This document shows, in pieces, positions 26,535 to 46,441 of a stretch of 64,000 nucleotides of DNA. Under the pieces are notes generated by a model. That model worked only from the letters and a program-made list of their open reading frames with translations, was not told the DNA's origin and made no database searches. How positions within the stretch are numbered: the stretch's first letter is position 1; every line of letters begins with the position of its first letter. The stretch is from a virus (lineage: Duplodnaviria > Heunggongvirae > Uroviricota > Caudoviricetes), in IMG/VR virus record IMGVR_UViG_3300032007_003791; one strand, given 5' to 3'. A program made the position numbers and the translations under genes.

Positions 26535-26577
26535 TTCTTTGATAAGTATGTTGATTTCCGGTCGGGTGGAATTAGAC

Positions 26578-26946: not shown

Positions 26947-27001
26947 AATGATTGTTGATTGGTTTGTAGCGGTTAGAGGGGAGGTGTTGCCTCCCCGTCA
27001 A

Positions 27002-27469: not shown

Positions 27470-27486
27470 GGTGTTTTGCGAAAAGT

Positions 27487-27957: not shown

Positions 27958-29768
27958 CAAGCTACTGCGCTTTTCGTGTTTTTGCTCAGGGTTGGAACAA
28001 TAGCCTCGCACCAGACCTTGGCCATGATGGTCACGACGGCGTTGCCGAGGTATTTCTTCTGCTCTTCCTGGGTTCCCACGAGGATGTAGTCCTTCGGGAA
28101 GCCCTGGATAAGCTTCAGTTCGTCGATGCGGAGCATCCGCATGGAGATGTCCACGATGCCGAAGACGAACATGAAGCGCTTGATTTCCTTCATGATTTCG
28201 CTGTCGCTCTCATAGAAGAGGTAGATGAGGGTATCACCCTCTCTTCTGATGAACGACGGCAGATGACCATCCATGGTGACGGAGGCCATTTGGAGCGGCA
28301 GCTTGTCCTGCCGGGCGATGACGGTTGGACAGGGAGCGTCTACGCTGTTTCCCGGGCAGGAAAATTGCGGATTGACAAGGTACTGCCACTTACGGTTGGC
28401 TGTGACCACTCGTGCAGGCTCGTTCACGGAGGCACCGACGTTGTTGAAGTTCGTGTCAAGCACCCAGGGTTTCTTGATATGGACAAGCTTCTGCTTGGGA
28501 TTGTTCAGGACCGTCCCGCAGGGTTTCTCGACGGAAGAAGGGCCACTGGCCCCATACTGGTTGTCAAGGAAGACCATCGCAAGGCGGTCACGGGTCGTTA
28601 CCGTCGGTGCCGGAGCATCGATGGACTGGGCTCCGCCCTTGCCATAGTAGGCCGTGATGAACTGGTGATGATCCCTTGTGGTGATGGTCCCGGCCGGGAA
28701 ATCGATACTTGTCTGCTTCCCTTCCGGATCGCCGCTGTAAGCTTTGGACAGGAACCGGGCACTGCCGACGCCTATACGGTTCTGCGTCGTGACCGTCGGG
28801 CAGGGGTCCTCCATGTCGGGTGCGATATAGGTCCCGTCCTTCATTCCGTTCCACTTAATGAGGAAGTTTTCCTTTCCTCCGGCGACGAATTTTACGAGTC
28901 CAGCATGGATGCGCTTGAGCGTTGCATCAACGAGGGGTTTTTTCCGGTCGAAGATGGACTGTCCTTCGTCGTTGAGGTCCAGGACGTCGCGTACCGGGAG
29001 CCAGGGTTTGAGGTGGCCGCCGAAGAGGTCATCCCCGCCCTCTCTGGCGTGCGTAGGCTGCGGGAAGACGATGTCTATTCCTCGTTTGGCGAACATGCCA
29101 AAGAAACGTCTGCGGGACGTATAGGCCCCGTAATCGGCGCTGTTGAGGATGCGGCTCTCGAAACGATAGCCGTAGGAGCACATTTCCTCAACCCAACGGT
29201 GATAGTACTCTCCCTTGTGTTCTGGATCCGGAAGCATGGCCGGTTCCGTCCACGTCTTGCGGTCCTTTCCCTTGCCGGAGGATTTCTTTATCATCACGAC
29301 GGTCCCGTCGGCCTTGCGTTTTTCCACGAGCGGGCCCCAGGTTTGGAACTCGTCCACGTTCTCAATTTGGACGATGTCCGGGTTGAGGGCTTCCACATAA
29401 CGGAAGAGATGCTCGGCGAGTGTCCTGGAGTCTGCGTCGCGGGACATGCCGCCCTTGGCGCGGCTGAAATTGGTGCATTCCAGGGATGCCCAGAGGACGA
29501 CCTTCGCCTGGGGGTAGGTTCTCCGGGCCAGTTCGATGTGCCTGACCATCGGGCCCAGTTCCAGCGTGCGAATGTCCTCCGTGTAGTGGATAGCCTCCGG
29601 ATGGTTGGCCTTATGGGAGGCGATAGCGTTCTTGTCGTGGTTGACGCATGCGATGACCTTGGCAATCTTCTTGCCGTTGATGACAGCGTTCTCAACGCCG
29701 GTTGAGGTCCCTCCGGCTCCGCAGAAGAGGTCAATGTAAAGGAGTCGGATATCTTCGTTAGGCTTCAT
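27957..29768 (-). CDS. DNA (cytosine-5)-methyltransferase, orphan (no adjacent restriction endonuclease)
   Basis: 603 aa; motif I DLFCGAGG, catalytic-Cys region ASLECTNFSRAKGG, ENV motif (IVQIENVDEF). Confidence 0.85.
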   Translation of the reverse strand: MKPNEDIRLLYIDLFCGAGGTSTGVENAVINGKKIAKVIACVNHDKNAIASHKANHPEAIHYTEDIRTLELGPMVRHIELARRTYPQAKVVLWASLECTNFSRAKGGMSRDADSRTLAEHLFRYVEALNPDIVQIENVDEFQTWGPLVEKRKADGTVVMIKKSSGKGKDRKTWTEPAMLPDPEHKGEYYHRWVEEMCSYGYRFESRILNSADYGAYTSRRRFFGMFAKRGIDIVFPQPTHAREGGDDLFGGHLKPWLPVRDVLDLNDEGQSIFDRKKPLVDATLKRIHAGLVKFVAGGKENFLIKWNGMKDGTYIAPDMEDPCPTVTTQNRIGVGSARFLSKAYSGDPEGKQTSIDFPAGTITTRDHHQFITAYYGKGGAQSIDAPAPTVTTRDRLAMVFLDNQYGASGPSSVEKPCGTVLNNPKQKLVHIKKPWVLDTNFNNVGASVNEPARVVTANRKWQYLVNPQFSCPGNSVDAPCPTVIARQDKLPLQMASVTMDGHLPSFIRREGDTLIYLFYESDSEIMKEIKRFMFVFGIVDISMRMLRIDELKLIQGFPKDYILVGTQEEQKKYLGNAVVTIMAKVWCEAIVPTLSKNTKSAVA

Positions 29769-29896
29769 GATTTTTGATGAAAAAACCCACTACCGAAGCA
29801 GCGGGTCTAAATGTCTTTGGACAAGCATTTTTTCTACTGCAAAGGTAGTGATTTTTTTGTTTAAAAGCAATATTATTTGTTTAAAAACAATATTTT

Positions 29897-30436
29897 TCAG
29901 TTTTTGGCGGCTTCTGTGCAGATGTCGCTTGTGATTTTATTCATGTATTTTGTCAGTTGGATGAAGGTTTCTTTTGCGTCTTCCTGGGAAATCCTCGTAT
30001 TTTTTGCGTCGTATATCGTTGATACAGGATAGTTGGTGGCTGGATTGTACGAATACTTGATGTCGGTTAAAGGAAAGTAGATATCAATCTGGTTGCATTT
30101 TGCAGTTATCTTGTTGACTCCGTTTTCGTATCTGACGTCAAGGGTGATGCGGGCTCCCATCTGGCTGTATTTGCCTTCGTTGATATTGGGAACGTCGATG
30201 TCGGCGGAAGCGTGAGAGCTCTTGCAGGAAAGCGTTCCGCTTACTAGTCCGTTTTTCTTGATGAATTCCAGGAAGGCCGAAATGACGTTTTCCGTCTGCA
30301 CGAAGGCAGACGTGTTTTTCGTCACGATGACGGTTTCGTTGTCAACGACATAGGGTGAGGCCTGTGCATGGAGGGTGGCGGTGCTGAGCACCAGCATGGC
30401 GATGATGGTGATGAGGGTTTTAATGGTGTTTTTCAT
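29897..30436 (-). CDS. hypothetical secreted protein
   Basis: 179 aa; N-terminal signal peptide IIAMLVLSTATLHAQA. Confidence 0.5.
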   Translation of the reverse strand: MKNTIKTLITIIAMLVLSTATLHAQASPYVVDNETVIVTKNTSAFVQTENVISAFLEFIKKNGLVSGTLSCKSSHASADIDVPNINEGKYSQMGARITLDVRYENGVNKITAKCNQIDIYFPLTDIKYSYNPATNYPVSTIYDAKNTRISQEDAKETFIQLTKYMNKITSDICTEAAKN

Positions 30437-30489
30437 GGGTGTGGGGTTTTGATGTTTGACTTTTCAGGGTTGTGTCGGTTCACTGTTGT

Positions 30490-30735
30490 TTATATGAATT
30501 TTTCCAGGTTTTTGGCTTCTTCCATGTTTTCTTTTGAAAGTGGTCTAATCTGGAAAGCTGCATCTTGAAGGAGTACGTAGGCAATTATTCTTGGTAGTGC
30601 GTAATCGTCCTCCCACTGTTTAAGGTCGATAGCGCCACTGTTAATAGCACTTTCAATTTTCTTTGTGGCGGTTTTGCATGCCAGGGAAATCATCTCCCGG
30701 GTTTTCTTCTTGCATTGGGCTTTAGTTATTGGCAT
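30490..30735 (-). CDS. hypothetical protein
   Basis: 81 aa ORF. Confidence 0.3.
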   Translation of the reverse strand: MPITKAQCKKKTREMISLACKTATKKIESAINSGAIDLKQWEDDYALPRIIAYVLLQDAAFQIRPLSKENMEEAKNLEKFI

Positions 30736-30754
30736 ATGATGATTTTTATGATAT

Positions 30755-31594
30755 TTATTGAGCTGGAACGGTTATCACTCGTACGTTGCTGAACTGCGGG
30801 AAGCGCTTGATGATGCGTTCCCGGGCGTTTTCTGCAAGTTTACGGGAGTCGTATCTGTATGCAGAGTCTTTGAACGGACTGAAGAAAATCTTCCGTGACT
30901 TGAGGTTGGTCATGTACCGTTCACATGATTGATAGGTGAAGGAGATGATATGCTGCTCCGTGGGGGCCTTGCGTTCGGGGCGTGCTTTTGTGGTCCGCGC
31001 CTTCATGGCCTGCCAGGCGATTTCGCCGGAATACTCCGAAAAGCCAATCCAGGGAGTCCGTCCTTGACTGAGGTGTTCGGCCCATTTGTCGGCGAGTTCC
31101 TTTTCGTCGCGGGCGTGGTCGGTATGGTATTTCGAAGATTCTCCGTCTTCGCTCACTTCGTACCAGGACAGGCGGACTCCGCCGGCCTCTTCCATGGTGA
31201 CGGCATGGCGGAACCCGGATTTGAAGAAGCTGAGGTACTGCGCAGCGCTCGTGACAGAGTGACCGTAGACGGTCATGGCTGTGAAGTAACTGAGTTCCTT
31301 GAGGATGAGTTCCTCTGTGTATGGCTCTTTCGCGTAGGAGGGCTGCTGCCCGGCGTACTGGGTAATGACGTCCTGGATCTGCTGCTGGACGGAGCAGATG
31401 ATTTCCTGTTGCGTGAGCGCGTAGCGTCTTTTCTGCTCGTCGGTGCGATGGAGCCACCGCTCGTTGCTCCAGTTGCGGGAACGGCGGTTCCGGCCGACGT
31501 CCCAGACGTTGTTGTCGCCGCTTTCGGTGATGGGGATGAACGTGCCGTCGCTGAGCTTGACGAACATGGCACGGTAGAAGATTGCGTAACTCAT
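30755..31594 (-). CDS. hypothetical protein
   Basis: 279 aa ORF. Confidence 0.45.
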   Translation of the reverse strand: MSYAIFYRAMFVKLSDGTFIPITESGDNNVWDVGRNRRSRNWSNERWLHRTDEQKRRYALTQQEIICSVQQQIQDVITQYAGQQPSYAKEPYTEELILKELSYFTAMTVYGHSVTSAAQYLSFFKSGFRHAVTMEEAGGVRLSWYEVSEDGESSKYHTDHARDEKELADKWAEHLSQGRTPWIGFSEYSGEIAWQAMKARTTKARPERKAPTEQHIISFTYQSCERYMTNLKSRKIFFSPFKDSAYRYDSRKLAENARERIIKRFPQFSNVRVITVPAQ

Positions 31595-31894
31595 TATCGT
31601 TGGCTGTTTGATTTGATTGTGAAGGTTGTGTTGGTTCGCTATCTTGCGTGGATTTTACAGCCTGGGAGGCATGCCGACCAATTGGGCTGTAAAATCTTCG
31701 CAAAGAAAAGCGGACCAACTTCTTCCGAGCAAGGGTTCCTGGCGGAACACGACCACAAGGCCCCCTTGTGGGGCCGAAGCCCGTAGCCCGTAGGGCAAGG
31801 GGGCTGCTGCCTGGTGGAGGTTCCGTCAGGAAGCGGAAGCTTGCCCTTGCGAGGAAGAACCGTTGCTTGTTGTATCATACTGAGATTGTCTCAT

Positions 31895-32854
31895 TTAGAG
31901 AAGCTTCACTCTTATTTTTTTAGCCTTTAGGATTTCTTTGGAAGACAAAAACCCGCCGTATACTTCTCCGGACGAGTAGCCGTTGGCGTCTTTGAATTTC
32001 TCATCAACATAGATGGACGGCTTGTCGTATTGTGTTCTTGCTTTTCTCTTGAGTTCTTTGATGGTCACATCACGGAGGGTTTCGGTGAAATCACAAGAGC
32101 CGCCGCCAACCCAGCTGTTGAAGATGGTACAGGTTGTACCTGCAGGAATAACGAGATTGTCGAATTGCTCTTTTTGAGGAGTATCGTATAATCCGGTATT
32201 CCAGAGAGCATCCATGTCGAATAGACCGAAGAAAGTGAAGAGGCCGTAATTGGGGCATTCTATGAGACAGTCGAGAAATCCTTTATAGGAGATAATTTCT
32301 TTACCTTCTCTGTTTTTGTAGTTCGGGAAAGAGCCGAAGCATGCGACTCCCCTTTTGATGGCTTCTTTTTTTACCTTGGCCGGATTAAGGCAGAGCGCTG
32401 TCATCATCCCCTCCAGTGCGTCTTCTTTACCATAGAGTCCTTTGCTGGCATAGAGGGGTTTCCAGGCGTCGTAGTTGGAGTGTAGAGTCACCCTTGCATG
32501 GATTCTGCTGCGGCAGAAGATTTCTTTCTCGGCTTCGGAGTCATCCCTGTTTTTGATTTCGAGGATGAGCTGGTCGTACTCGTCTGTGTTTTTAAACAGT
32601 TCTTTTTCGTCGTCACTAAGCTCTTCCAGCTCATCGAGAAGGTTGTTAAGCTCTTGTACGGCGTAGTAATGCGCCTGTTCAGAGAAAATCTCCCAGAGGT
32701 TATCCTCTAAGCCTTCTTTCAGGATTTTCTTAAGGGTGGCCGGTTGGATCTGGTCGTCATAGCCGACATGAGTCAGCGTGTAGGAGTCATCAAGGCGGGA
32801 GTACAACTCGTTATAAATTTTGTTTTCGTCAATGACGGTATGCTTTTCGGTCAT
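31895..32854 (-). CDS. hypothetical protein
   Basis: 319 aa ORF. Confidence 0.45.
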   Translation of the reverse strand: MTEKHTVIDENKIYNELYSRLDDSYTLTHVGYDDQIQPATLKKILKEGLEDNLWEIFSEQAHYYAVQELNNLLDELEELSDDEKELFKNTDEYDQLILEIKNRDDSEAEKEIFCRSRIHARVTLHSNYDAWKPLYASKGLYGKEDALEGMMTALCLNPAKVKKEAIKRGVACFGSFPNYKNREGKEIISYKGFLDCLIECPNYGLFTFFGLFDMDALWNTGLYDTPQKEQFDNLVIPAGTTCTIFNSWVGGGSCDFTETLRDVTIKELKRKARTQYDKPSIYVDEKFKDANGYSSGEVYGGFLSSKEILKAKKIRVKLL

Positions 32855-32887
32855 GGCTAATTTTTTTCGTGTTGGTAATGTTGAGGA

Positions 32888-33403
32888 TTAAGATTTTGTT
32901 TCCCAGTAATTGCCGAGCCACACGTCATGCATGCTGAGGAGTTCGATGCAATTATCTCTGTCTTTTTCAGTGGAGAACTCGTATGAGGCATAGCTGCCAT
33001 CAATCTCTCCCTTCTTGATGGCGTTGATGGTTTTCTTGATTCCTTCGTCTACAGCCATTCTGGATGCAGTCTCACCGAAAATCACATCGAGGCGGAATTT
33101 CTTTTTCACGGGAGAGAAGACGTTACCGTCGTAATCGAGGTAGTCTTCTTTCTTCGCTTTCTTTTTGAGTGGTTTCCTCGTGTAAAGAGTGTCGGATTCC
33201 GGTAAGAATTCTGCATAGGGTTCAATGTCGCCGCAGTGGTGGTATACCTTGAAGGTATCTTCGTTGGTCGTTACCCATTGGGTCGTGGAGTCCTTGTAGT
33301 TGAGTACGCCGAGGATGTAATCTTCGACGTTGTTCTCGTAGGATTCGGGGATGGTGGTAGTCACCAGTTTCCCGCTTTCGTGGTCAATGATGAGGGCTTT
33401 CAT
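32888..33403 (-). CDS. hypothetical protein
   Basis: 171 aa ORF. Confidence 0.4.
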   Translation of the reverse strand: MKALIIDHESGKLVTTTIPESYENNVEDYILGVLNYKDSTTQWVTTNEDTFKVYHHCGDIEPYAEFLPESDTLYTRKPLKKKAKKEDYLDYDGNVFSPVKKKFRLDVIFGETASRMAVDEGIKKTINAIKKGEIDGSYASYEFSTEKDRDNCIELLSMHDVWLGNYWETKS

Positions 33404-33722
33404 TTTTTAAAAAATTAAAGAACCATTCAAGAGCTTCGTCCAGCGGTGAGTATTCATCACCCCAGTCTTCTTCGTCAAGGTGGCTTTCCGGAACGAGAAG
33501 GGCTTTCGTCCAGTCGCCGTCTGTGTCGTAGTGGACTACGATTCCGTCTTCGATGTGTGTCGCGTAGAGCGGTTCGCAGATGCTGTTAATCTCATTCAGT
33601 TCGTCTTCTGTGAGATATTGTTTGGTTTCTCCTACTTTGGTTTGTTTGCAGAGGTTGGTGAGTTTGGCGCCGAGGGGCCGTAATTCGTTGAGTGTAAGTT
33701 CTTGCATGATAATGAGTATCAA
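33384..33722 (-). CDS. hypothetical protein
   Basis: 112 aa ORF, overlaps the upstream ORF. Confidence 0.4.
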   Translation of the reverse strand: MILIIMQELTLNELRPLGAKLTNLCKQTKVGETKQYLTEDELNEINSICEPLYATHIEDGIVVHYDTDGDWTKALLVPESHLDEEDWGDEYSPLDEALEWFFNFLKNESPHH

Positions 33723-33732
33723 TGATATTTTC

Positions 33733-34203
33733 TCAATATTCGCATTCAGTTTCGTTCTGAAAAGAGAAGTACCGGTTGGTGTCCGTTATAATAACGGAGT
33801 CGAGCAGTTTGATATCCAGGCATGCGAGAGCCTTGCGGAGCTTACTCATCTGTTCTATGTCCTGCTGTGAAGGAAGAGGGTTCCCAGATGGGTGGTTATG
33901 GACGGCGACTACGCTGTCGGCCATCATCTGGACGGCTGTGCGACAGACCATTTTCGGTTCGAAACTGCAGGTATTCGGTCCTCCGATGGATAAAACCTCG
34001 TAACCGAGGATTTTGTTCGATTTTGATAGATAGATGGCAATAGCCTTCTCTCTCCACATCTCGTCCTCGTCGTAGATGGTCTCGTGGCAGAAGCGGGCCA
34101 CTTGGGCCCCGTTGCGTAGGGTGTCCTCATTAGCTGTGACTCGCTTCCGGTGAACGATAAATTCGTACACTGAGACGATGTTTTTTTCTTTGTTTTTGTT
34201 CAT
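33733..34203 (-). CDS. radC: RadC-like JAB/MPN domain protein
   Basis: 156 aa; JAMM motif HNHPSGNPLPSQQD. Confidence 0.8.
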   Translation of the reverse strand: MNKNKEKNIVSVYEFIVHRKRVTANEDTLRNGAQVARFCHETIYDEDEMWREKAIAIYLSKSNKILGYEVLSIGGPNTCSFEPKMVCRTAVQMMADSVVAVHNHPSGNPLPSQQDIEQMSKLRKALACLDIKLLDSVIITDTNRYFSFQNETECEY

Positions 34204-34209
34204 GATAAC

Positions 34210-34728
34210 TTAAAAGTTTTTCCAGGCACCGGTATCGCCAAGGGCAAGGACGGACACTTTGTCGATGTTAAGTGCTGCAATGGCTGCTCTGGCTGTCGTA
34301 CCGGTGTCTACTACGTTGTCAATCAAGATTACTTCCCACCCTAATTCAACAAGAGCCTTTACTCTTTTATCGGCTCTGTCCCGGTAGACGAAGCCGAATT
34401 CGATGTCGTCGAAGGGTTCCCCCTTCGCCTTGCGTCCGCAGACGCTGTCGTGGACGTAGCCGCAGAGGCCGTCAAGGACGACTGCGGTTTTGTCAGTTCC
34501 CAGATTGTTACAGTGTTCGGCGATGGCAAATGCCAGTTTCTTGGTGTATTCGGCTTTTCCCGACGACTGTGGCATCGGAATAAGCAGACTCTTGGTCGGG
34601 AGCGCATCGGCGATTTTGTTAAGGAACGGGTTGATTACAGAGGTGTCCCCGCGTTTTATTTCATAACAGAGGTCGCGGACTTCCGTGTACTTCTTTGCGA
34701 AAACGATATTTAGTTCCATTGTACTCAA
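34210..34728 (-). CDS. phosphoribosyltransferase-domain protein (ComF-like PRTase)
   Basis: 172 aa; PRPP-binding motif VILIDNVVDTGTTARAAI. Confidence 0.7.
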   Translation of the reverse strand: MSTMELNIVFAKKYTEVRDLCYEIKRGDTSVINPFLNKIADALPTKSLLIPMPQSSGKAEYTKKLAFAIAEHCNNLGTDKTAVVLDGLCGYVHDSVCGRKAKGEPFDDIEFGFVYRDRADKRVKALVELGWEVILIDNVVDTGTTARAAIAALNIDKVSVLALGDTGAWKNF

Positions 34729-34737
34729 AAGCTTGGA

Positions 34738-35322
34738 TTAAATTTTATGGCAAGCACCCGGATAATGTTCATGTTCCGGAACACTGTCCGGGCCGGTGAA
34801 TTCTGCACATTCTTCGCATCGGATTTCCGGGAACATGTATGTTTTTATTTCTGTTGCTTTCCTGGCGCATTCCCATTTTCCTTTTTCATGATCCAGTTCC
34901 GGTTTTTCATAAAACAGATGGATTTTCCCATATTGGATTTCTGTTTCAGGGTGGCGCCTTACCCAGTTTTCTGCCGCCTCGTCATCGAAGACGGCTCGGT
35001 CACGAGCAATATAGATTTTCATATCTTTTTTAGGAAAAAACACTTCTTTTTCGGTGATTTCCCACGTCACAAGGTTATAGCTGCAGCCGGAGCCGATTTC
35101 ACCCTGCTGGTAGCTGGCGCTCTTTTCTTCGATTTTCGTTGAGAAGTTGTCGTAACCGCCGGCTTTGGCTTCTTCCTTTTCGGTTTGAAGCTCGTTTTTC
35201 ATCTGCACTTGTGCTTTTTGGAGCGAAGGGTGCACACTCACGCTTACGCTCGGGTTATCGAGCGAGTCAAGGTCGCCGTACTCTGCGAAGAGGGCGACTG
35301 AGGTAAGGATGTAGATTTTCAT
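34738..35322 (-). CDS. hypothetical secreted protein
   Basis: 194 aa; N-terminal hydrophobic signal-like segment. Confidence 0.45.
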   Translation of the reverse strand: MKIYILTSVALFAEYGDLDSLDNPSVSVSVHPSLQKAQVQMKNELQTEKEEAKAGGYDNFSTKIEEKSASYQQGEIGSGCSYNLVTWEITEKEVFFPKKDMKIYIARDRAVFDDEAAENWVRRHPETEIQYGKIHLFYEKPELDHEKGKWECARKATEIKTYMFPEIRCEECAEFTGPDSVPEHEHYPGACHKI

Positions 35323-35331
35323 GGTGTGAGT

Positions 35332-35688
35332 TTATTCTTCAGGAATGGTGAGGGTGTCTTCGTCGATGATGTGGATTTCGTTTGCGATAGCTTCGACTAC
35401 CGAGCGACGGTTTCCTTCGGCGTCAGTGTAGTTCAGGTTTCTGAGTCGTCCGACGATTTCGATTTTGGTTCCTTTTTTGACATTGAGGATGTCTTCTTCG
35501 GAAATCTTTTTCCCTTCGTAGGCGATGACGTTGATCCAGAAAGTCTCGAGGATGTTTTCATTGTTCCGGTTTATGTAAGCGTATTCGGTTACGACCGAAC
35601 AGCGGATGTATTTTTTCCCTTGGAAATCTTTTACGTCGGATGTTCCGACGATGCCACGGAGGTGGACTTTGTTTAAGAATTCAAGCAT
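35332..35688 (-). CDS. short SSB-like OB-fold protein (paralog of 46442..46783)
   Basis: 118 aa; MLEFLNKVHLRGIVG aligns with MYEFINIVEIQGIVG of the paralog. Preceded by repeat A copy 1. Confidence 0.55.
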   Translation of the reverse strand: MLEFLNKVHLRGIVGTSDVKDFQGKKYIRCSVVTEYAYINRNNENILETFWINVIAYEGKKISEEDILNVKKGTKIEIVGRLRNLNYTDAEGNRRSVVEAIANEIHIIDEDTLTIPEE

Positions 35689-35734
35689 TGCTTTCTATTT
35701 TATAATTAAGGTTGTTATTTCTGTTTTTAGATTT

Positions 35735-35968
35735 TTTTTGTTGTAGCTTCGCGTGATTTCCCCACGCGGACGCTTGCGTCCATAAGTGGGTGAAATCTAA
35801 GCAAGAAGGCACAACAAAAAATTCCCTTTCTGCAAGGGTTTTCCATAAAACACGACCACGAGGCTCCTTGGGGGCCGAAGCCCGCAGCCCGCAGGGCAAG
35901 GGGGCTGCTGCCTGGTGGAGGTTTTTGGAAAACGAGCGTAGCGAGCTCGCCACTTGCGGAAAGGGAAT
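35735..35968 (-). repeat. intergenic repeat family A, copy 1 (terminator + promoter + structured leader cassette)
   Basis: ~235 bp matching 46982-47213 and 54993-55229. Hairpins cgcgtg/cacgcg, ggacgc-tt-gcgtcc, ccctt-tctgc-aaggg flanked by A- and T-tracts, ggctcc/ggggcc, gagctc palindrome. Confidence 0.7.
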
Positions 35969-36006
35969 ACGTTTCAGCGATGAACTCCTGATGGGTTCTG
36001 TTTCAG

Positions 36007-36399
36007 TTAACAGGAAACAGTGGATAGGATGGCGTTGATTTTCGCCAGTTGGTTGAATGAAAATTCGTTGATGGAGGTACTGGTTCCGAAATGGAAGAAA
36101 TCAAGGAAGCACTTGATATATTCGTTTCCGTTGATGTCGGTGGAGCGGGTGATTGCTTCCAGTTGGAATTTTCCGACATCGTTCCAGAAGAAGTCGGTCC
36201 TTTTCCTTTTGGGTATTATGACGGTATTGCCCCTTGGGGGCAGTTTTGCCGTGATTTGCCGGATGAGTGTCTGCTTTGTCATAGGATAATAATGAAAAGG
36301 GAACGGGAAAACCCAGAAGCGGGCTATACACACATGCGAAGAATTCGCAAGTCCCGTTCCCTTGGATAGGTATTGAACGACGTTTTTCCCCTTCACCAT
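36007..36399 (-). CDS. hypothetical protein
   Basis: 130 aa ORF. Confidence 0.4.
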   Translation of the reverse strand: MVKGKNVVQYLSKGTGLANSSHVCIARFWVFPFPFHYYPMTKQTLIRQITAKLPPRGNTVIIPKRKRTDFFWNDVGKFQLEAITRSTDINGNEYIKCFLDFFHFGTSTSINEFSFNQLAKINAILSTVSC

Positions 36400-36785
36400 A
36401 TTTCTACGAGTTCCTTATCATATTCTTTAAGAAACTCATCAAGGTTGAGGTATTTTCTGACGGGCATCATCTTGCGGTCGTCAGGGGTGAAGAAGGAGGG
36501 ATAGAGGGCGAACCCCCTGCGCAGGTATTCCCTTGTCAGGGCCTCCTCCGGGACAGGCGAATTGTCCGGTTCGATGATGAGGTGTCTTCCGTGTGAACCC
36601 GGGGTCGCGTTGCAGATGGCGACATTGAACCCCGGCCGGAACTCGTTCACCTGGATATAGGCGACGTTCTTCTCGTCGGAGTAGTAGCCGTAGGCGTTTT
36701 CCTTGTTGCTGGAGAGGAAGACGCGGAAGTCCATGTTGCGGAGTGTTTCCGCAATCCTCTCAAGGGTTTGTCTGGGTGTTTCCAT
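36393..36785 (-). CDS. hypothetical protein
   Basis: 130 aa ORF. Confidence 0.4.
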   Translation of the reverse strand: METPRQTLERIAETLRNMDFRVFLSSNKENAYGYYSDEKNVAYIQVNEFRPGFNVAICNATPGSHGRHLIIEPDNSPVPEEALTREYLRRGFALYPSFFTPDDRKMMPVRKYLNLDEFLKEYDKELVEIW

Positions 36786-36866
36786 TTCTTTTCTGAAGGG
36801 AGGGCAGCCGTGAGGGCAAGGAGCCCGAAAATAATGAGTAAAAGTGTTGTCATGGTTGATGGTGGC

Positions 36867-37148
36867 TTACAGATAAACCTTAGCATGGAGGTGGATCTTG
36901 TCGCCACGGGGATCGACACGTGTGGTGTCGATATAGAAGGTGGCACGGGCGAGGGCGTCGAGCCAGCCTTCGCGGCCGAGGCGTTCTTCGGTCTCCTGGC
37001 GGGTGATGGTGAGCTTTTCGCCGCTCTTGCCGATGAGGTGGTATTCGGTCTTGGAGGCGGCGTAGTCCACCTCATGGATGTCGTTGAGCGAGTAGCCTCG
37101 GCTTGCGAGGTATTCGCGATCTTTCTTGCTGAGTTTGAATTTAGCCAT
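36867..37148 (-). CDS. hypothetical protein
   Basis: 93 aa ORF. Confidence 0.4.
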   Translation of the reverse strand: MAKFKLSKKDREYLASRGYSLNDIHEVDYAASKTEYHLIGKSGEKLTITRQETEERLGREGWLDALARATFYIDTTRVDPRGDKIHLHAKVYL

Positions 37149-37227
37149 GGTATTGTCTGATTTTGATTTTCTGTTTTTTCGGGCCGGCCGGGCCTTGTGC
37201 CCGGCCGGCTTATTCTTAAAAGTGTGA

Positions 37228-39072
37228 TTATGCTGTGTAAGAGCGTCGTACGGTTTTCATTACGATATTTTTCACGACAGTCGAGATTCCTTTGACAAGG
37301 TTCTGGATGCTTGCCATATCAATCCATGTATCATACATGGCTGCAAGGTGGTCCTTGGTCAAGTTGCTGTCGACTGAGATTCCGATTACTTCCATTCCCT
37401 GTTGTTTTGCTTCATCCACGGCTTTCCGTACATTCGATAACGGACCGTTAGGATAACCGTCGGAGATAACGAGAAGGACTGCCTTGCTTTTGCTTTTCTG
37501 CCGGACACGGCTGACAACTTCCTGGATAGCTTCGGCTGTCGGAGTGCCTGATATGGCCTCGATGCTTCCAAGGGTGTACTTATCGTAAGGTTTGCCCCAT
37601 TCGCGGTAAGCGAAAAGCGCATTCAGGTTATAGTCCGTGTATCCGTAGATATTCAGTTCCACATTGGGGATATTACCGACAGCCTCGTTGATGAGGATTG
37701 CGGCCTGGCGTGCGAGCACGAATTTGCGACCATTCATTGACCCGCTTTCATCAATGAGAATGCTGAGGTTCACCCTGTCAGGGCGTGTCACTTCCTTGCG
37801 GCAATAGACGTTCTTGTTTCCCTGTACGGCTTCGGCAATCTTGTTGCCGTCAAGCATACCTCGTTTGAGGCCTGTTTGAACGGAAGTGATTTCCGCTCCG
37901 TGGGTAATAAGGGACCTTTGTACGGTGGGAATGAATTTCTTGACTGCCCGCAGGTCGGACATGTAAATAGCCTTGTTGGGCTCTTTCTTGAGGATAATGG
38001 CATTTTTGCCTATTTCCAGTTGACCGTCCATTTCTTTTGCAAGAAGGTGGTCGTTTTCTTTCAGGTCTTTGGACATGTCATCCTCGGAGATTGTGGTATC
38101 TGCGGACTTGATATTCTTTTCGATTGCATCAAGAATCTTTTCAAGGATTTCTTCCAACTCTTCATCACTGAGTTTGCGGCTGCTGCTTCCTTTTCCGTTG
38201 CCGGAACCGGCTTGCTTACCACTGCCTTGGTCGTCGCCTTCTTCGCCTTCGCCTTCGCCTTGGCCCTGACCCTCGTCGTCTTCGTCCATGTTGTCTTCCG
38301 CGTACTGCTTGAGCAGTTCGTAGATTTTCTTGGCCGTTTCGTAGGTCTCTTCGGTGTTCTCCGGATACGGGGTGAGGATTTCCCGTGTTTCGAGAAGGAG
38401 GTCCGCAAAGTCGTGGACTTCTTCCTGGGTGAGGGTTGCCGGATAACGAACGAGTTTCAGGATGGCGTTGAACGCCTTGGTGAGGTCGTTCTGGTTTTGA
38501 GGCATGTCGTCCTGTACCTTACCGAAATAGAAGTATTTCGTTGCCTTCAGGAAGTTTGCAAGTCCGGGGTTCTCTTCGCCGGTATGGCGTTCAATCATTT
38601 CGTCTTCCACTACATTGTGAATGGCGTGCAAAATCCGTGACTTATCATTTTGTCCGATAGTGAAGTCGGTGTACAAGAGGTGTGAACCTTCGTGCACGGC
38701 AGCCCCTATGAAAACATCGAGTCTCTTGCCAAGTGGAAGCGACTCGTCGTCGAACACCTTGGTTGCCACCCAGAGGGTGTGGCTGTCGGTTGCGTTCCGT
38801 TCGGCGTCCACCTTCACGGTTACCTTGTACGGGTGTCCCATGGAAATGACCATATTACGGGCAATGCTGAGCGCATTCTTGTAAAGGTCCCTGGTGGTGG
38901 CGGGGTTCAGGATTATCGACGAATAGGCGGAATCTTCCGGAAGGGTGTCTTCCCAGCCAAGGCGGTCGGTGGTGCGGATACGCACGTAGGTCTCACCGTC
39001 CCTTTCAAGCCAGTCCTTTTCGAGAAGGGCAACCTTCTCTTCAATGGTCATATTTTTGTAGTTCTGTTTCAT
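37228..39072 (-). CDS. VWA-domain protein (CobT/NorD-like partner of the MoxR ATPase)
   Basis: 614 aa; C-terminal VWA with MIDAS DESGSM; central acidic/Gly-rich linker; N-terminal HEGSH (HExxH-like). Confidence 0.75.
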   Translation of the reverse strand: MKQNYKNMTIEEKVALLEKDWLERDGETYVRIRTTDRLGWEDTLPEDSAYSSIILNPATTRDLYKNALSIARNMVISMGHPYKVTVKVDAERNATDSHTLWVATKVFDDESLPLGKRLDVFIGAAVHEGSHLLYTDFTIGQNDKSRILHAIHNVVEDEMIERHTGEENPGLANFLKATKYFYFGKVQDDMPQNQNDLTKAFNAILKLVRYPATLTQEEVHDFADLLLETREILTPYPENTEETYETAKKIYELLKQYAEDNMDEDDEGQGQGEGEGEEGDDQGSGKQAGSGNGKGSSSRKLSDEELEEILEKILDAIEKNIKSADTTISEDDMSKDLKENDHLLAKEMDGQLEIGKNAIILKKEPNKAIYMSDLRAVKKFIPTVQRSLITHGAEITSVQTGLKRGMLDGNKIAEAVQGNKNVYCRKEVTRPDRVNLSILIDESGSMNGRKFVLARQAAILINEAVGNIPNVELNIYGYTDYNLNALFAYREWGKPYDKYTLGSIEAISGTPTAEAIQEVVSRVRQKSKSKAVLLVISDGYPNGPLSNVRKAVDEAKQQGMEVIGISVDSNLTKDHLAAMYDTWIDMASIQNLVKGISTVVKNIVMKTVRRSYTA

Positions 39073-39075
39073 GGT

Positions 39076-40287
39076 TTATCGTGCTAAAATCATATTGTGA
39101 ACGATAGCGCGTTCGCCTTCGATGTCCGTCCCTTCGAAGAGTTCGAGGTAGATTGTCTCCATTGCGTATCTTGCGGTGCGTCCGCATTCTACATATCTTG
39201 CGCAGCGCATCGTCTCACGCGTGGTTACCGTATTGGAAATGTTCCCGTCGGTGTAATTCTTGCGAATCTTGTTCGCAACGCTGACGATATTCACTGCGTC
39301 CGAGTTCATCAGGTGCGGGTACTTGCTCATTAGCAGGTTTATTTCTTCCTGTTCCGGAAGATACTCGAGTGTCCTTTCAAGGAACCTGTCCCGAAGGGCC
39401 TTGTCGAGCGGGTTGGTGAGGTACTCGGGTCCTTCGTTGATTGTCGCTATGAAGCGGCATTTGGGGTGGACCTTGATTTCTCTCTGACCCTTGCTGGTTG
39501 CCAGTTCGCAGAACATCGTCTTTCGCCAGTCCAGAATGGACATGAGGCTTGTTGCAGCGTCCTTGGACGCTCTGTTGAGTTCGTCGAGGACGATAATGCA
39601 TTCGGTCTGGATTTGTTTTGCGAAGCGTGCCTGGTCGTAGACTGACTCTCCGTTCTCGATACGGTGTACACCCTGCATCTGAGCCACGGCGTCGAACATA
39701 GTCGCCATGTCGTAGATATAGACTGGTACATTGAAGACGGTGCCAAGTAAAGTAGCCAGTGTCGTCTTACCTGTTCCGGCGGGGCCTTTAAGGAGAATGT
39801 TTTCTCCACAGGTAAGGTCCATTATCGTGTCTAACCACTTGTCGTGGTTGATGTAGAACCCGTCCTTGTCGATTGTCGGCGTTGCGAAGTTTGGATTTGC
39901 CTGAATTTTGTCAATCAGGCGGTTTCCTGTTGACTTTACTTTCGTCTGCTGGCCGTCGGCGTTGAAGTTGTTGTCCACTTTGTATTTGAGCCACTCATTT
40001 TTCATTTCGTCGGATGGGCTATTATTCAGAGGTACCTGCTGGGTGGTTTCAACCACCTTTACGTCGTCCCCGATTGCGTAGAACGGCTGGGTGCCTGTTG
40101 TGGCTCTTAACTCACAGACGTCAGAGACGAATATCGTTCCGAGGGGGAAATTCTTCCGAATATCGGAAGGTCCCTGGCAGTTGAGGTCAGGGTTGATGGG
40201 CTGTCCGGCGCTTGTTTTCTGATTCGGAAGAGGACGGAAGCGGACTTTCTTGGTTTCGTCTTGGACGGATTTGAAAAAGTAGAACAT
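39076..40287 (-). CDS. MoxR/CbbQ-family AAA+ ATPase
   Basis: 403 aa; Walker A LLKGPAGTGKTT. Separated from the VWA gene by a 4-nt gap (operon). Confidence 0.8.
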   Translation of the reverse strand: MFYFFKSVQDETKKVRFRPLPNQKTSAGQPINPDLNCQGPSDIRKNFPLGTIFVSDVCELRATTGTQPFYAIGDDVKVVETTQQVPLNNSPSDEMKNEWLKYKVDNNFNADGQQTKVKSTGNRLIDKIQANPNFATPTIDKDGFYINHDKWLDTIMDLTCGENILLKGPAGTGKTTLATLLGTVFNVPVYIYDMATMFDAVAQMQGVHRIENGESVYDQARFAKQIQTECIIVLDELNRASKDAATSLMSILDWRKTMFCELATSKGQREIKVHPKCRFIATINEGPEYLTNPLDKALRDRFLERTLEYLPEQEEINLLMSKYPHLMNSDAVNIVSVANKIRKNYTDGNISNTVTTRETMRCARYVECGRTARYAMETIYLELFEGTDIEGERAIVHNMILAR

Positions 40288-40289
40288 AG

Positions 40290-41477
40290 TGTCTTTTTAT
40301 TTATTTGTCGTTTGTTTCTTGGGTTGGGGCGTTAACTTTGTGTAGGAATTTTCCCACCATGTAGAGAGCTCCGCGAACGGAGTGGTGGGGAAATTTCGGA
40401 ACAATAGTAACACCCTAACCCTCCAATGCGGCAAGCACGAAGGGGAAAAAAAATGACCACAAGGACCACTCGTGGTCCGCAGCCCGCAAGGGGCGCCTTC
40501 CACTCGTGGAAGGCGATGGTCCGTTATTTTTTCCACGAGTGCGCGTGCATTGGAAGGGAAAAGAAATTGCCGTCAGGCTTTTTGTAGGCGTGCTGTTTTG
40601 TATCGGTGGTCACGGTTTATGCGGTACGGGCGGTATGGGCGTGGTTCAGTGGTTAGGATAGGGAATATAGTTTGGTGTGAAATTGGGATTGGCGGATATT
40701 TGTCCGAATTTGGTTGAATTGTCCGTTTACAGGTTGCTCTGGGTGGTTTGGGGCTAATCCGGGGCGCTCTCTCCAGGCTCTGAGCGCCCCAGGTCCGGGA
40801 ATGAATCGGGGTCGTGTCGTGATTTTGGATTCTTCCAAAATCACGATGTTGTTCGAACCCTTCCGGGGGAGGGGCCCTGGAAGGGAAGGACTGTGGCAGG
40901 GTGCTTTTTAGTTCTGTTGCAGGTGTTTTAATGAGCCTGTCCGTTTTACTGCGCATGACGGAATCCGCTGGGCCCCTTGGAAACCGTCTTGAGGCTCATA
41001 GCGTCAAGACGGCAAGGGAAAGCGGATAAGTGGGTGGAAGGGCGTTCAGGGCCCCCCGCGTAGCATTTCCTGAATAGGGCCTGTTCAGGAAATGTGGGAG
41101 CAAGGGGAAGGAACGCCGTGGGTCTCGTGCGTTGGCAAGGCACCCCGCAGGGCCCCTGTTCCCGATAGGGTAGGGGCCGCCAGTTGTATCCTGTAAGGTA
41201 AACTGGCTGCTCCGTTCAGGGAAAGGCGGGGTGCCGTGTGGGGGTTTCTTCTCTTTCTGGGCCCCATGTGCGAAAAGACGATCACGGACGCCTGAAGGGG
41301 CGGACGGGATCGTGGATTTGTGGGTGGATTGGGGAATGAAAGAGAGGAATGGAAGAATGTCCTTTTCTTGGGAAAAAGGGTGGGTGTGGGGTGGTGGTAC
41401 CGTACCACTCGCATGAGTGGTGCGGTACCACCGCTTAGGTGTCCAATAAAAAAGGGAGGTCCTGTATGGAACTTCCC
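40290..41477. other. G-skewed gene-free tract 2 (includes repeat family B copy 1)
   Basis: 1.2 kb without a credible ORF. GGGCCCC boxes at ~40870, 40970, 41050, 41150, 41262. Hairpins at 40815-40845, 40985-41012, 41062-41092. G-tract gggtgggtgtggggtgg followed by an 18-bp hairpin at 41388-41428. Confidence 0.6.
40360..40578. repeat. intergenic repeat family B, copy 1
   Basis: Aligns with 63520-63746: gggaaatttcggaacaa...ccaatgc.g.aagcacga.gg..aaaaaatgacc.caagg.cc...cgcagcccg..aggggcgc...cgagtgcgc...ttggaaggg..aaga.attgccgt.aggc. Closing stem ccaatgc/gcattgg. Confidence 0.65.
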
Positions 41478-42227
41478 TTATAAATTTTTTTTACTTTTTG
41501 ATTTTTTCCGTGTGCTGGTGGACTTGAAAGAATTATATATTTCAAGGCTTGCTTTTTGTTTTGTATACAATTCAACTTGATGAATAATATCTAACTTGAT
41601 AACATCCCAATCTTTTCCAAGTAGACATTTGGGGTTTGGCTCTAAATCAGCTTTTGAAAAATCAACAAGAGCATCTAAAATCTTATCTTCCTCGTGTACC
41701 CATGGCTGCCATTTTTTGTGAAGAGACATTAATTTTTCAAACGGATAAATTTCCAATAGTTTATCAATATCCCACCAATCTTTTTTACGTCCACCGTTAT
41801 TGATAGCTTCCATTTTCATGGCTGCTATCTGATTGACTGATTCAAATCTTATTCCCTCTATGAGCTCTGGACCAGAAATAAATTGGTCAGTATACATAAG
41901 GTCAAGTTTGACAGCATTTTCTTTATTCAGGCCGACATAGTACATTCTACCAAAACCGACAATCCCGGATTTATCCGGACTATCAAAATATGGAAACATT
42001 CTTTGCAATTCATTTTCCAATTTTACAAAGTCTATGCTTCCGTATTCAGCATCCGTAAATAAATCAATATCATCTGAACAACGATGACCAAATCTTAAGC
42101 TAAGATTGGTACCTCCAACAAGGTTAAAGTTATTAAAAACCGGATTTTTCATCAAGGCATTAAGTGTATTGATAAGAACCGGTTTTACAGTTTCATAATG
42201 AAGAAGTTCGTCCTTAATATTTGTCAT
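41478..42227 (-). CDS. AbiEii/AbiGii-family nucleotidyltransferase toxin (DUF1814)
   Basis: 249 aa; N-terminal NTase motif LVGGTNLSLRFGHRCSDDIDLF; AT-rich island. Confidence 0.75.
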   Translation of the reverse strand: MTNIKDELLHYETVKPVLINTLNALMKNPVFNNFNLVGGTNLSLRFGHRCSDDIDLFTDAEYGSIDFVKLENELQRMFPYFDSPDKSGIVGFGRMYYVGLNKENAVKLDLMYTDQFISGPELIEGIRFESVNQIAAMKMEAINNGGRKKDWWDIDKLLEIYPFEKLMSLHKKWQPWVHEEDKILDALVDFSKADLEPNPKCLLGKDWDVIKLDIIHQVELYTKQKASLEIYNSFKSTSTRKKSKSKKNL

Positions 42228-42651
42228 AAAATTTGTTTATAGAATTGATTTCTTCAGCGTTTCCTCTTTCTCTAACCCTGTTTATAATAAAATCCTTATT
42301 TAAAGTCCAATCCAAAGAATTAATATCAATGTCCCAAAATACAACTTTCCTAATATTGGGATATGTTTGGGAAGGAACTTTAATCTGTTTTTTTTGTTGG
42401 AGAAGATAATAAGTTTGTATTATCGCGAAGAAACCATGCTCAAAATGTAATGCATTATCAAGTTTTAATGAAAGAGGAATTGAAATTAGTCTTTTTCCCT
42501 TGATAATTGCATTTAAAGTTTGGTAATGCTCTCCAATATTGGCTGCAAGTTCCCGTTGTGTCATATTGCCATTTTTTAGGCAAGACACAATAATTTTTCC
42601 TGGAGCAATACCTTTATATGCATTTATCTTATTCACGTTGTAAAGGTACAA
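42214..42651 (-). CDS. HTH (XRE-like) putative antitoxin/regulator paired with AbiEii
   Basis: 145 aa; HTH MTQRELAANIGEHYQTLNAIIKGKR; 14-nt overlap with the toxin gene. Confidence 0.55.
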   Translation of the reverse strand: MYLYNVNKINAYKGIAPGKIIVSCLKNGNMTQRELAANIGEHYQTLNAIIKGKRLISIPLSLKLDNALHFEHGFFAIIQTYYLLQQKKQIKVPSQTYPNIRKVVFWDIDINSLDWTLNKDFIINRVRERGNAEEINSINKFYDKY

Positions 42652-42757
42652 AAAAACATAGAAATAAACAAATTTGTTTATTATACAGTTTCCAGAAGGG
42701 TGGTCCCGTTTTCGGGTCCGCCCTTCTGGAAACTGTAAATTGGAAATATAGCTGTTT

Positions 42758-43321
42758 TTAGCTGTTCACGAGTTCATAGACATCAACGAACCAGGGGCAG
42801 TCGCCCTGGGTGATGGTTTCTTCGTCTTTAGGATATTTCCCGAAGACGGAAATTTTTACGACATAGCGGCCACCTTCAAGGAAGGTGACGTTTTTCTCGT
42901 TTTCGAGGTCTTCGAAGAGTTCGTCATTGTCCGGATCGTAGAAGGCATAGTTGTTTTTGCCTACGGCTTTCTTTTTCCAGTCATTGAGGACGGTTTCCGG
43001 TCCGCGCATCGAGGCGTCGTAGCAGTCGCTGTAGTTGTTGATATAGGCGACATGCTTATACTGGGCTTTGATTGCCTTGACTTCTTTGATAGTATGAAGT
43101 CCCCAGTAGGGTGTTCGTTCCGGGACCATGCTGCGGGTGACCATCTGTCCTTTCTTGCCGATGGCATAGAAGATGGGATAGAGGGCGTACTCCATGCACG
43201 AATGGCTTCCTTCGAAGCACTTGTATCCTCCGAAGTATCCTTCGTAGGTGCGTTCCCCAAGAGTGACCTGTACTCTCTGGCCGTATTGCAGATTGAGGTT
43301 GATGAATTCTAATGCGTCCAT
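42758..43321 (-). CDS. hypothetical protein
   Basis: 187 aa ORF. Confidence 0.45.
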   Translation of the reverse strand: MDALEFINLNLQYGQRVQVTLGERTYEGYFGGYKCFEGSHSCMEYALYPIFYAIGKKGQMVTRSMVPERTPYWGLHTIKEVKAIKAQYKHVAYINNYSDCYDASMRGPETVLNDWKKKAVGKNNYAFYDPDNDELFEDLENEKNVTFLEGGRYVVKISVFGKYPKDEETITQGDCPWFVDVYELVNS

Positions 43322-44862: not shown

Positions 44863-44872
44863 GATGGCTGGT

Positions 44873-46439: not shown

Positions 46440-46441
46440 GG

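Follow-up and report, generated by a model that had tools for sequence, protein, structure and literature searches.

Six intergenic units in the heads of operons

The window analysed here is the whole 64,000-nucleotide stretch of the virus record IMGVR_UViG_3300032007_003791, which by its gene content is part of a conjugative element of Bacteroidota, and the subject of this work is a family of six noncoding units (cassettes c1–c6) that it contains. Each unit is about 235 bases long and has its gene-sense strand on the minus strand (Table 1). The cassettes lie 4–8.5 kb apart in a long array of minus-strand genes, and each of these co-oriented copies follows a gap and heads a gene run with spacings below ~60 nucleotides (nt). 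Three of them (c1, c2 and c3, with a mutual identity of 84–93%) had been described in an earlier sequence-only reading of the window, and they are present where that reading had placed them. Its count of three does not hold for the family, as c4 was recovered by a repeat search and c5 and c6 by profile searches, which brings the number of copies in the window to six. The fourth cassette is a diverged copy, with 67–70% identity to c1–c3, and is the source of most of the compensatory changes described below, while c5 and c6 constitute a second subfamily (73% identical to each other; 54–59% identity between the subfamilies, with c6 at 54–58% to c1–c4).

The repetition is confined to the unit. The 200-nt flanks on either side of every copy are ~50% identical, which corresponds to the background, as opposed to 54–93% inside the unit, and the single-stranded DNA-binding proteins encoded behind c1 and c2 (SSB1 and SSB2) share only 27% amino-acid identity (BLASTP E = 2e-14). 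We therefore rule out a segmental duplication, an origin that the sequence-only reading had itself named as one that would refute its proposal: it is the unit, and not a gene-containing segment, that is repeated or maintained. The same reading had two copies driving paralogous short SSB-like genes. The paralogy is confirmed and c1 does lie 46 nt upstream of SSB1, whereas c2 directly precedes a 50-residue open reading frame (ORF) and SSB2 comes second. Two further candidate explanations could be discarded. The copies are not coding sequence, because they are separated by indels of 1, 2 and 4 nt and their changes are compensatory, and they are not the omega-RNA/reRNA of the neighbouring TnpB, given that c2 lies >450 nt past the end of tnpB with an 81-residue ORF between them.

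Table 1 Coordinates of the cassettes, of the gene runs behind them and of the transfer-related features of the window (H1, distal hairpin; H2, gene-proximal hairpin; oriT, origin of transfer; aa, amino acids).
Feature	Position	Strand	Description
mob operon	10852..13095	-	MobC_2-like accessory protein, third SSB, relaxase (Pfam); transcribed away from the 13095-13553 gap
Probable oriT/control region	13096..13552		Between the mob operon and divergent genes; inverted repeats, repeated TTATAA motifs
Leading-region-type gene array	19763..64000	-	Nearly all ORFs on the minus strand, ~44 kb, pointing toward the probable oriT
c4	31630-31859	-	H1 31720-31859; H2 31630-31719; 35 nt before ATG (31594) of a 279-aa protein
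c4 run			279-aa protein and following genes
SSB1	35332..35688	-	First gene behind c1; Pfam SSB E = 8.4e-11
c1	35735-35968	-	H1 35821..35968 (~148 nt, distal, three-way apex containing GGGCTTCGGCCC); H2 35735..35820 (86 nt, gene-proximal), 5' arm bearing TAGATTTC; H2 end 46 nt before the SSB1 ATG (35688)
c1 run			SSB1 through the RadC gene
c6	40323-40556	-	H1 40420-40556; H2 40323-40418; upstream of the MoxR-AAA/VWA operon (ATG 40287)
c6 run			MoxR-AAA/VWA genes
SSB2	46442..46783	-	Second gene behind c2; SSB-like E = 0.0025, below the Pfam cutoff; distant SSB1 paralog
c2	46980-47212	-	H1 47068-47212; H2 46980-47067; H2 end 15 nt before ATG (46964) of a 50-aa ORF, then SSB2
c2 run			50-aa ORF, SSB2, then RNase H- and ComM-like genes
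c3	54992-55229	-	H1 55082-55229; H2 54992-55081; H2 end 9 nt before ATG (54982) of a 209-aa protein of unknown function
c3 run			209-aa protein and following genes
c5	63487-63724	-	H1 63580-63724; H2 63487-63576; H2 end 1 nt before ATG (63485) of a 239-aa protein with sigma-70 region 4
c5 run			Sigma-like protein; PcfJ, DUF2130 and methyltransferase genes downstream

Each unit consists of two long imperfect hairpins

Folding predictions resolve every unit into two long imperfect hairpins, a distal one of ~140–150 nt (H1) and a gene-proximal one of ~86–96 nt (H2). The basal stem of H1, which in c1–c3 has the form TCCCTTTC-GCAAG...CTTGC-GAAAGGGA, is followed by a middle stem and then by a GC-rich three-way apex, which is the best conserved in sequence and is kept across the diverged copies (CCACCAGGCAG..., GGGCTTCGGCCCC, GCCTYGTGGTCGT). 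When read in the gene sense, this apex carries a tetraloop of the C(UUCG)G type (GGGCTTCGGCCC), with UGCG in place of UUCG in c5 and c6. H2 is built from an outer stem, a conserved internal loop, a helix of the GATTTC/GAAATC type and a small apex hairpin, and the gaps from its 3' end to start codons measure 1, 9, 9, 15, ~35, 35 and 46 nt.

This architecture replaces the layout first proposed, a terminator followed by a −7 element and a leader with two small hairpins: the −7-like box sits in the 5' arm of H2, and the leader-coding segment is the 3' arm of the same hairpin. The bidirectional intrinsic terminator that had been seen in ccctt-tctgc-aaggg corresponds to the 3' strand of the H1 basal stem, and only three of the six copies have it. 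Considered on its own, this local hairpin lacks compensatory pairs, and its score is reached by all 500 of 500 shuffles; the same bases pair long-range with the 5' end of the unit, in a helix that holds six compensatory pairs and is kept in c4 via four double substitutions. A T-run follows H1 in c1–c3 and is missing behind H1 in c4, c5 and c6, and a conserved GC-rich hairpin with an immediate U-tract, as in an intrinsic terminator, was not found across the six copies.

Compensatory changes maintain both hairpins

Alignment of the copies with their homologs, followed by sliding and shuffle tests of covariation (the earlier reading had proposed a covariation test of such an alignment with R-scape), supported both hairpins. 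For H2 (9 sequences), 88% of the cells form standard pairs, compared with 39–50% when the 3' partners are slid, and a compensatory change is present in 14 of the 27 pairs (4–8 when slid), a score reached by none of 500 shuffles. The outer stem is the most covarying part of this hairpin, with 10 compensatory pairs out of 15. The values for H1 (8 sequences, in which the rows of the second subfamily are imperfectly aligned in the 5' half) were 89.6% of cells paired against 43–61% when slid and 19 of 44 pairs with a compensatory change against 2–10, and again no shuffle among 500 reached the score. The double substitution that had first drawn attention to the repeats (ggaCgc/gcGtcc versus ggaAgc/gcTtcc) is genuine and maps to the apex of H2 (columns 46/54: CG in three copies, AU in three and GC in one), and the C-to-T change preserved by a wobble is seen in copy 2 as T.G. 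Judged from these alignments, the fold is clearly maintained across the copies despite the small number of lineages, which supports the original view of a reusable, structure-constrained regulatory module before minus-strand operons of leading-region type and not of a decaying repeat.

The cassettes are among the strongest-folding parts of the window. When the + strand was scored with DNA parameters, they ranked 2, 3, 4, 5, 40 and 60 among 2549 sliding 300-nt windows, with GC-corrected z-scores of −3.2 to −4.7. The energies of the 300-nt windows over the cassettes span −65.9 to −77.3 kcal/mol (four at −75.2 to −77.3, two at −65.9 and −69.0), and four of the six pass the published threshold for hairpins of this kind (below −75 kcal/mol in a 300-nt window with DNA parameters; PMC12672017).

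Promoter-like boxes lie within the arms of H2

Boxes that resemble the −7 element of Bacteroidota, whose primary sigma factor recognises the consensus TTTG at −33 and TAnnTTTG at −7, are located inside the arms of H2. On the gene-sense strand, TAGATTTC (5/6 consensus positions) with a TTG 15–17 nt upstream occurs in c1–c3 and their close relatives only; this is the −7-like element of the sequence-only reading, which thus stands for those copies and fails as a feature of the whole family, the boxes of c4–c6 being weaker. The + strand arm of H2 carries TAACTTTG (6/6) in c5 and c6, TAGCTTCG or TACCTTCG (5/6) in c1–c3 and a 4/6 match in c4. The box of c5 lies at 63494–63501, and that of c6 belongs to a full Bacteroides-type promoter, TTTG-N18-TAACTTTG, at 40311–40340 and pointing into H2. 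A search for promoter boxes of the Escherichia coli sigma-70 type found none.

Since the boxes are inside the arms of H2 and H2 ends 1–46 nt from the start codons, the DNA that encodes the leaders is kept complementary to promoter-like DNA. A transcript that starts from a box inside H2 cannot form the outer stem, yet it is the outer stem that covaries most, and a hairpin formed at the DNA level on the transferred strand (T-strand) would fit this pattern better; of all the observations, this geometry speaks most strongly for DNA over RNA. Conversely, read-through RNA that formed H2 would bury the start codons behind c5, c3 and c2. The + strand box faces away from the genes in duplex DNA, while on a folded T-strand transcription from it would pass round the loop and reach them, an orientation that suggests a hairpin promoter.

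Gene context

The genes for the type IV coupling protein, the relaxase and the MobC-like protein are of Bacteroidota type. Leftward from a 458-bp gap at 13096–13552 come a MobC_2-like protein, an SSB, a relaxase of the MobA/VirD2 type, NrdD, a YWFCY/TraG-type coupling protein, whose nearest plasmid relatives are 'MobC' proteins of Bacteroides, Parabacteroides and Hymenobacter (40–44% identity), and then a topoisomerase. The mob operon and the probable oriT together span about 5.5–13.5 kb; we take oriT to lie in the gap by analogy with the oriT of Bacteroides conjugative transposons (CTns), and the same layout is seen in the Parabacteroides element L149. Motifs that contain TTATAA (GGTTATAA, CTTTATAA, CCTTATAA) are clustered in both orientations at 13360–13500 and could be iteron-like binding sites of this probable oriT/control region. 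A full-consensus Bacteroides promoter is also present within this mob-proximal gap, at 13320–13351 on the + strand. NrdD (8503–10845) and the third short SSB (12342–12680), both on the minus strand, are unusual cargo for their position in the mob operon, where they are embedded between the genes for the relaxase and the coupling protein.

The array that contains the cassettes encodes a C5 methyltransferase, a DUF4942 methyltransferase, DprA-like, RadC and ComM-like proteins, RNase H, an AbiE toxin-antitoxin pair, PcfJ and DUF2130, together with the two short SSBs and the protein with sigma-70 region 4. This last protein (239 residues, 62766–63485, minus strand), the first behind c5, matches sigma-70 regions 3.2–4 only in its C-terminal 80 residues; its N-terminal 135 residues have no assignment, and it is found with 70–90% identity in a few related elements. 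It may be an element-encoded sigma-like factor that is expressed early.

A gene array oriented in this manner is the signature of a leading region that can be read from the transferred strand (PMC11541004). In L149, a canonical Parabacteroides CTn, ardA is likewise found on the far side of the tra operon and is directed back at oriT. If the relaxase side of the element enters the recipient last, as is usual, the + strand would be the T-strand.

Relatives of the cassettes and hairpins in other elements

Direct searches for relatives of the cassettes returned no match: neither blastn of c1 with settings for distant similarity against the 72,556 plasmid records of PLSDB, nor blastn against phages, nor a viral scan for the cassette. 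Only chance matches in GC-rich genomes came from a scan of genome contigs with CCACCAGGCAGNAGCCCCC, and the 11 matches of a two-anchor pattern in metagenomes were likewise all due to chance. Rfam, another check that the sequence-only reading had proposed, gave only HEARO at 4746–4977 and no cassette in a gathering-score scan of the window, and only chance-level miRNA/sRNA matches in E-value scans of 31.5–36.1 kb and 40.2–42.9 kb, which cover c4, c1 and c6.

Homologs could be reached only through the neighbouring proteins, a route that led to three additional variants (two copies in the element L137 and one in L144) and to near-identical copies in L121 and L122; searches of the related elements L134–L148 with nhmmer and with a covariance model of H2 added no members to the family. 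The family was found only in a small number of metagenome assemblies, which to judge from their sample names may come from rumen or gut. Relative to the genes, all nine copies have the same orientation, and they are always intergenic, at the heads of operons. The copy of L144 (1120–1360) occupies a locus orthologous to that of c3, with a downstream protein 91% identical, and combines a c1-type H1 with a c3-type H2 apex. H1 and H2 have therefore been exchanged between copies, by recombination or gene conversion.

Related elements that do not carry these cassettes have strong hairpins of unrelated sequence in their intergenic gaps (L134, L140, L145 and L148), one of which lies directly upstream of the SSB ortholog of L134 (9836–9940, z = −10.7). 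In L149 (NZ_OY725747.1, Parabacteroides distasonis, CTnDOT-type), the 635-bp gap upstream of ardA folds at 28440–28800 into an imperfect hairpin of ~290 nt (−75.8 kcal/mol, z = −6.9), and parts of this region are conserved in 10 records of Bacteroides, Phocaeicola and Parabacteroides. The hairpin of L149 may be an unrecognised promoter-like element active in single-stranded DNA (ssDNA). Together, the unrelated hairpins in front of the L134 SSB ortholog and of ardA in L149 hint that the principle is general, and comparable hairpins before ardA in classical Bacteroidales CTns could extend it to gut Bacteroidota at large.

Similarities to known single-stranded DNA promoters

In placement, repetition, orientation and predicted fold, the cassettes resemble ssDNA promoters. 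The two Frpo sequences of the F plasmid, Frpo1 and Frpo2, are 92% identical, lie 5 kb apart, one of them upstream of ssb, and have activity only during the single-stranded phase of the plasmid (PMC9849209). Large hairpins are also formed in pESBL by each of the six intergenic segments that precede its leading-region operons; they fall into three unrelated classes, and their start sites were mapped by 5' RACE in transconjugants (PMC12672017). As in the first of these classes (Frpo/ssi class 1 of F and ColIb-P9/pESBL; Masai & Arai 1997; PMC9849209; PMC12672017), the units described here fall in a size range of ~230–330 nt, are repeated a few kb apart in the leading region, precede operons that include ssb and fold into long imperfect stem-loops whose stems contain promoter-like boxes; the genes behind them appear to be oriented such that the transferred strand would serve as their template. 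In contrast to that class, they belong to a host phylum with a different primary-sigma consensus and possess two hairpins, of which the distal has a three-way apex, and the reconstitution of boxes by pairing is only partly evident. They also have no sequence similarity to Frpo/ssi, and the absence of blastn matches among 72,556 plasmids means that they are not members of that class by homology.

The second and third pESBL classes (upstream of klcA/ardA and M.EcoGIX; PMC12672017) were likewise found by homology-independent mining of hairpins upstream of leading-region operons and illustrate that the same task can be performed by hairpins of unrelated classes, although they are enterobacterial sigma-70 promoters with starts mapped by 5' RACE, whereas any starts in the cassettes are putative. 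A further parallel is ssp2 of F (bioRxiv 10.64898/2026.01.09.698686), a stable leading-region stem-loop that could stall complementary-strand synthesis, much as H1 might on the side from which synthesis would arrive. It differs in being itself a promoter hairpin, whereas H1 is a separate upstream hairpin to which that role is here only attributed. The single-strand origins of rolling-circle plasmids (ssoA, ssoU and ssoT) are orientation-specific imperfect noncoding hairpins of ~150–300 nt on which RNA polymerase makes a primer on ssDNA. The cassettes share with them the orientation-specific imperfect hairpins in noncoding DNA, while a plasmid carries only one sso, which does not precede an operon; the RSB and CS-6 motifs of sso were not seen in the cassettes, in which no systematic search for them was made. 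Finally, the Reg576 promoters of plasmid p576 (PMC6294495) provide a case in which several establishment operons each lie behind a conserved, repeated control region and are expressed transiently after transfer, but they consist of duplex operators with a repressor, and in the cassettes it is base pairing, not sequence, that is conserved.

A model for early expression from the incoming strand

The repeats, the two hairpins and their covariation, the positions, the orientation and the gene context were all observed directly in this analysis; from them we infer which strand is transferred, a fold that forms in DNA, promoter activity and a role for H1. The explanation that we favour, and to which we give an even chance, is that the cassettes are Frpo/ssi-like ssDNA promoter or priming modules of a Bacteroidota leading region, with no homology to the known ones. 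The + strand would enter the recipient 5' to 3' from the oriT region near 13.3 kb and serve as the template of the ~44 kb of minus-strand genes. At each cassette this single strand would fold into H2, in which the template for the promoter and start is paired with the segment that encodes the leader, so as to produce a duplex-like promoter with conserved internal loops. Host RNA polymerase would then start inside H2 and transcribe round the loop or out of the stem into the operon, with its ssb and establishment genes, before a complementary strand exists, and the transcripts from H2 may in addition prime the synthesis of that strand. In the case of the + strand box, transcription on the hairpin would proceed toward the loop, round it and into the operon; as the box faces away from the genes in the duplex, this arrangement would explain a shut-off after conversion to double-stranded DNA. 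H1, which is larger, GC-rich and conserved in sequence, lies where complementary-strand synthesis would arrive from and could act as a priming signal and/or as a roadblock that prolongs the single-stranded state of H2, as has been reported for ssp2 of F; the conservation of its apex suggests recognition by a protein.

A more specific form of this model, which we advance tentatively and hold to be somewhat more probably wrong than right, is that the cassettes represent an undescribed, phylum-specific, two-part class of ssDNA promoters. The 5' arm of H2 on the T-strand would then be a surrogate non-template strand with a −7 box of the TAnnTTTG type, transcription would be off or reversed once the DNA is double-stranded, and H1 would stall or prime synthesis.

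Several of our observations weigh against a promoter that acts on the transferred strand. The boxes are only partly conserved among the copies, a search of the window for the full Bacteroides consensus promoter gave 3 matches where ~2 are expected (not significant), the −33 element of c6 is poorly placed in that it falls outside the stem of H2, and TAGATTTC on the gene-sense strand of c1–c3 is a candidate for an ordinary duplex promoter. Some 18 kb separate the probable oriT from the first cassette, the 12 kb of the array nearest to oriT yielded no cassette, and the assignment of the + strand as the T-strand and template of the array genes is drawn from the gene layout alone. The covariation fits the folding of RNA and of ssDNA equally well, counts of G.T versus A.C within the consensus pairs favour neither strand, and the sequences amount to ~4 independent lineages (the c1–c3 group, c4, c5 and c6) from one element and its close relatives, so the statistics rest on few events. 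The + strand does fold 3.6–10 kcal/mol better than the gene-sense strand in every copy, with DNA and RNA parameters alike, but it folds better everywhere (by 3.1 kcal/mol per 300 nt on average, sd 3.7, over the window) because of a general G>C skew of ~+0.12 that is uniform over coding and noncoding DNA, the sense strand of nearly all genes being C-rich. The difference in folding energy between the strands, indistinguishable from this bias, was for that reason dropped as evidence for an ssDNA fold.

Alternative explanations

Of the competing explanations, an ordinary duplex promoter combined with RNA structure, which comes close to the proposal of the sequence-only reading, is the most serious, though we regard it as unlikely. 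H1 would be the 3' end or terminator of the upstream operon, a sigma-A promoter would occupy the 5' arm of H2, and the apex of H2 would be a leader hairpin. Such an arrangement would accommodate TAGATTTC with its upstream TTG on the gene-sense strand of c1–c3, the T-run behind H1 in the same copies, a covariation equally compatible with RNA folding and the A-rich leaders, which are expected for translation starts in Bacteroidota. It leaves unexplained, on the other hand, why the promoter and the leader are complementary, with 10 of 15 outer-stem pairs compensatory although the transcript would lack the 5' arm. In addition, the T-run is missing and the −7 box is not conserved in c4–c6, the local terminator hairpin shows no covariation, and a 145-nt three-way hairpin with a conserved apex would be atypical as a terminator.

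The units might instead act as structured RNA in long read-through transcripts, whether as a site of processing or stabilisation, a signal for processive antitermination (put- or EAR-like), a translational insulator that conceals the following start codon or a stable small RNA, an option that we consider doubtful. Here the long unidirectional array with cassettes between its operons, the strong covariation in both hairpins and the apical loop in the gene sense (GGGCTTCGGCCC) are all in its favour, the C(UUCG)G tetraloop being a classic RNA motif. The loop becomes UGCG in c5 and c6, the regions scanned against Rfam gave no match even at E ≤ 1, and the gene-sense strand folds worse with RNA parameters in 8 of 8 copies, although that bias is general to the window. 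H2 in an mRNA would also bury start codons that lie 1–15 nt from its base (c5, c3 and c2).

Slightly less probable still is an ssDNA element without promoter function, that is, only a priming site of the ssi/sso type and/or a roadblock that delays the conversion from single- to double-stranded DNA. Long, strand-specific imperfect hairpins in noncoding DNA speak for such a function, the apex sequence of H1 is conserved in diverged copies as a recognition site for a protein or primase would be, and in F, ssp2 is a roadblock and Frpo transcripts prime DNA synthesis (bioRxiv 10.64898/2026.01.09.698686). Neither the strict placement at operon heads nor the abutment of H2 on the start codons is needed for this purpose, and the genes recognised in the window include no primase.

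A repeat devoid of regulatory function, whether a selfish or miniature mobile one (resembling a miniature inverted-repeat transposable element) or the scar of recombination spread by gene conversion, would explain the sharp borders of the unit, the unrelated flanks and mosaic copies such as that of L144. We find it very improbable in view of the single orientation of 9 of 9 copies relative to the genes, their constant position between genes at operon heads and the diverged subfamilies (54–58% identity) that keep the fold through compensatory changes; moreover, neither terminal inverted repeats nor target-site duplications were seen, and searches of plasmids, phages, viruses, genomes and metagenomes found no copies outside this element family. 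The least credible of all are duplex promoters under a repressor that give zygotic induction, as in the Bacillus plasmid p576 (Reg576; PMC6294495), with the conserved blocks as operators: conserved upstream regions are repeated before several establishment-type operons there too, and H2 contains inverted motifs of the GATTTC/GAAATC type, but operators conserve sequence, whereas in the cassettes pairing is kept although both sides have changed in more than 30 base pairs, and no repressor candidate was identified.

Implications for Bacteroidota elements

Conjugative plasmids are now regarded as bringing their anti-defence and establishment genes into action through early expression from the single strand that enters the recipient, and all the experimentally supported ssDNA promoters come from enterobacterial plasmids with sigma-70 boxes. 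Bacteroidota, which dominate gene exchange in the gut and rumen, use a different promoter grammar; our literature search found no paper that links ssDNA promoters with Bacteroidota, and the phylum goes unmentioned in a large survey of leading regions. If the cassettes are ssDNA promoters, a defined, repeated, covariation-supported module that precedes ssb, methyltransferase-containing and sigma-like operons would offer a concrete sequence to test, could serve as a search model for the leading regions of uncultured Bacteroidota elements and might become a part for early-expression cassettes in Bacteroides genetics.

Other features of the window

Other strongly folding segments are present in the array. 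The strongest-folding 300-nt window of the sequence (−78.3 kcal/mol on the + strand) lies in 40956–41478, where several independent near-perfect hairpins are found downstream of the AbiEii toxin gene; this segment has no Rfam match, and the 109-residue ORF called there matches no family and may be spurious. A perfect hairpin of ~20 bp (ACAGTTTCCAGAAGGG...CCCTTCTGGAAACTGT) at 42690–42740, in the gap between two minus-strand genes, resembles a terminator, although the gene-sense strand shows no clear T-run.

Mobile elements and their associated RNAs occur in several places. An IS200/IS605 insertion sequence (IS) with a Y1 transposase and TnpB occupies 17767–19297 on the + strand, and the fold-energy peak at 19176–19475 is probably the end of this IS or its reRNA. 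A second, solitary TnpB (47676–48803, minus strand) is located in the leading region between c3 and c2. Within the transfer module, an IscB-type gene with RRXRR and HNH domains (3353–4657, minus strand) has a HEARO/omega RNA directly upstream (RF02033, 112.6 bits, 4746–4977), and the pair (3353–4977) is inserted between the topoisomerase and coupling-protein genes.

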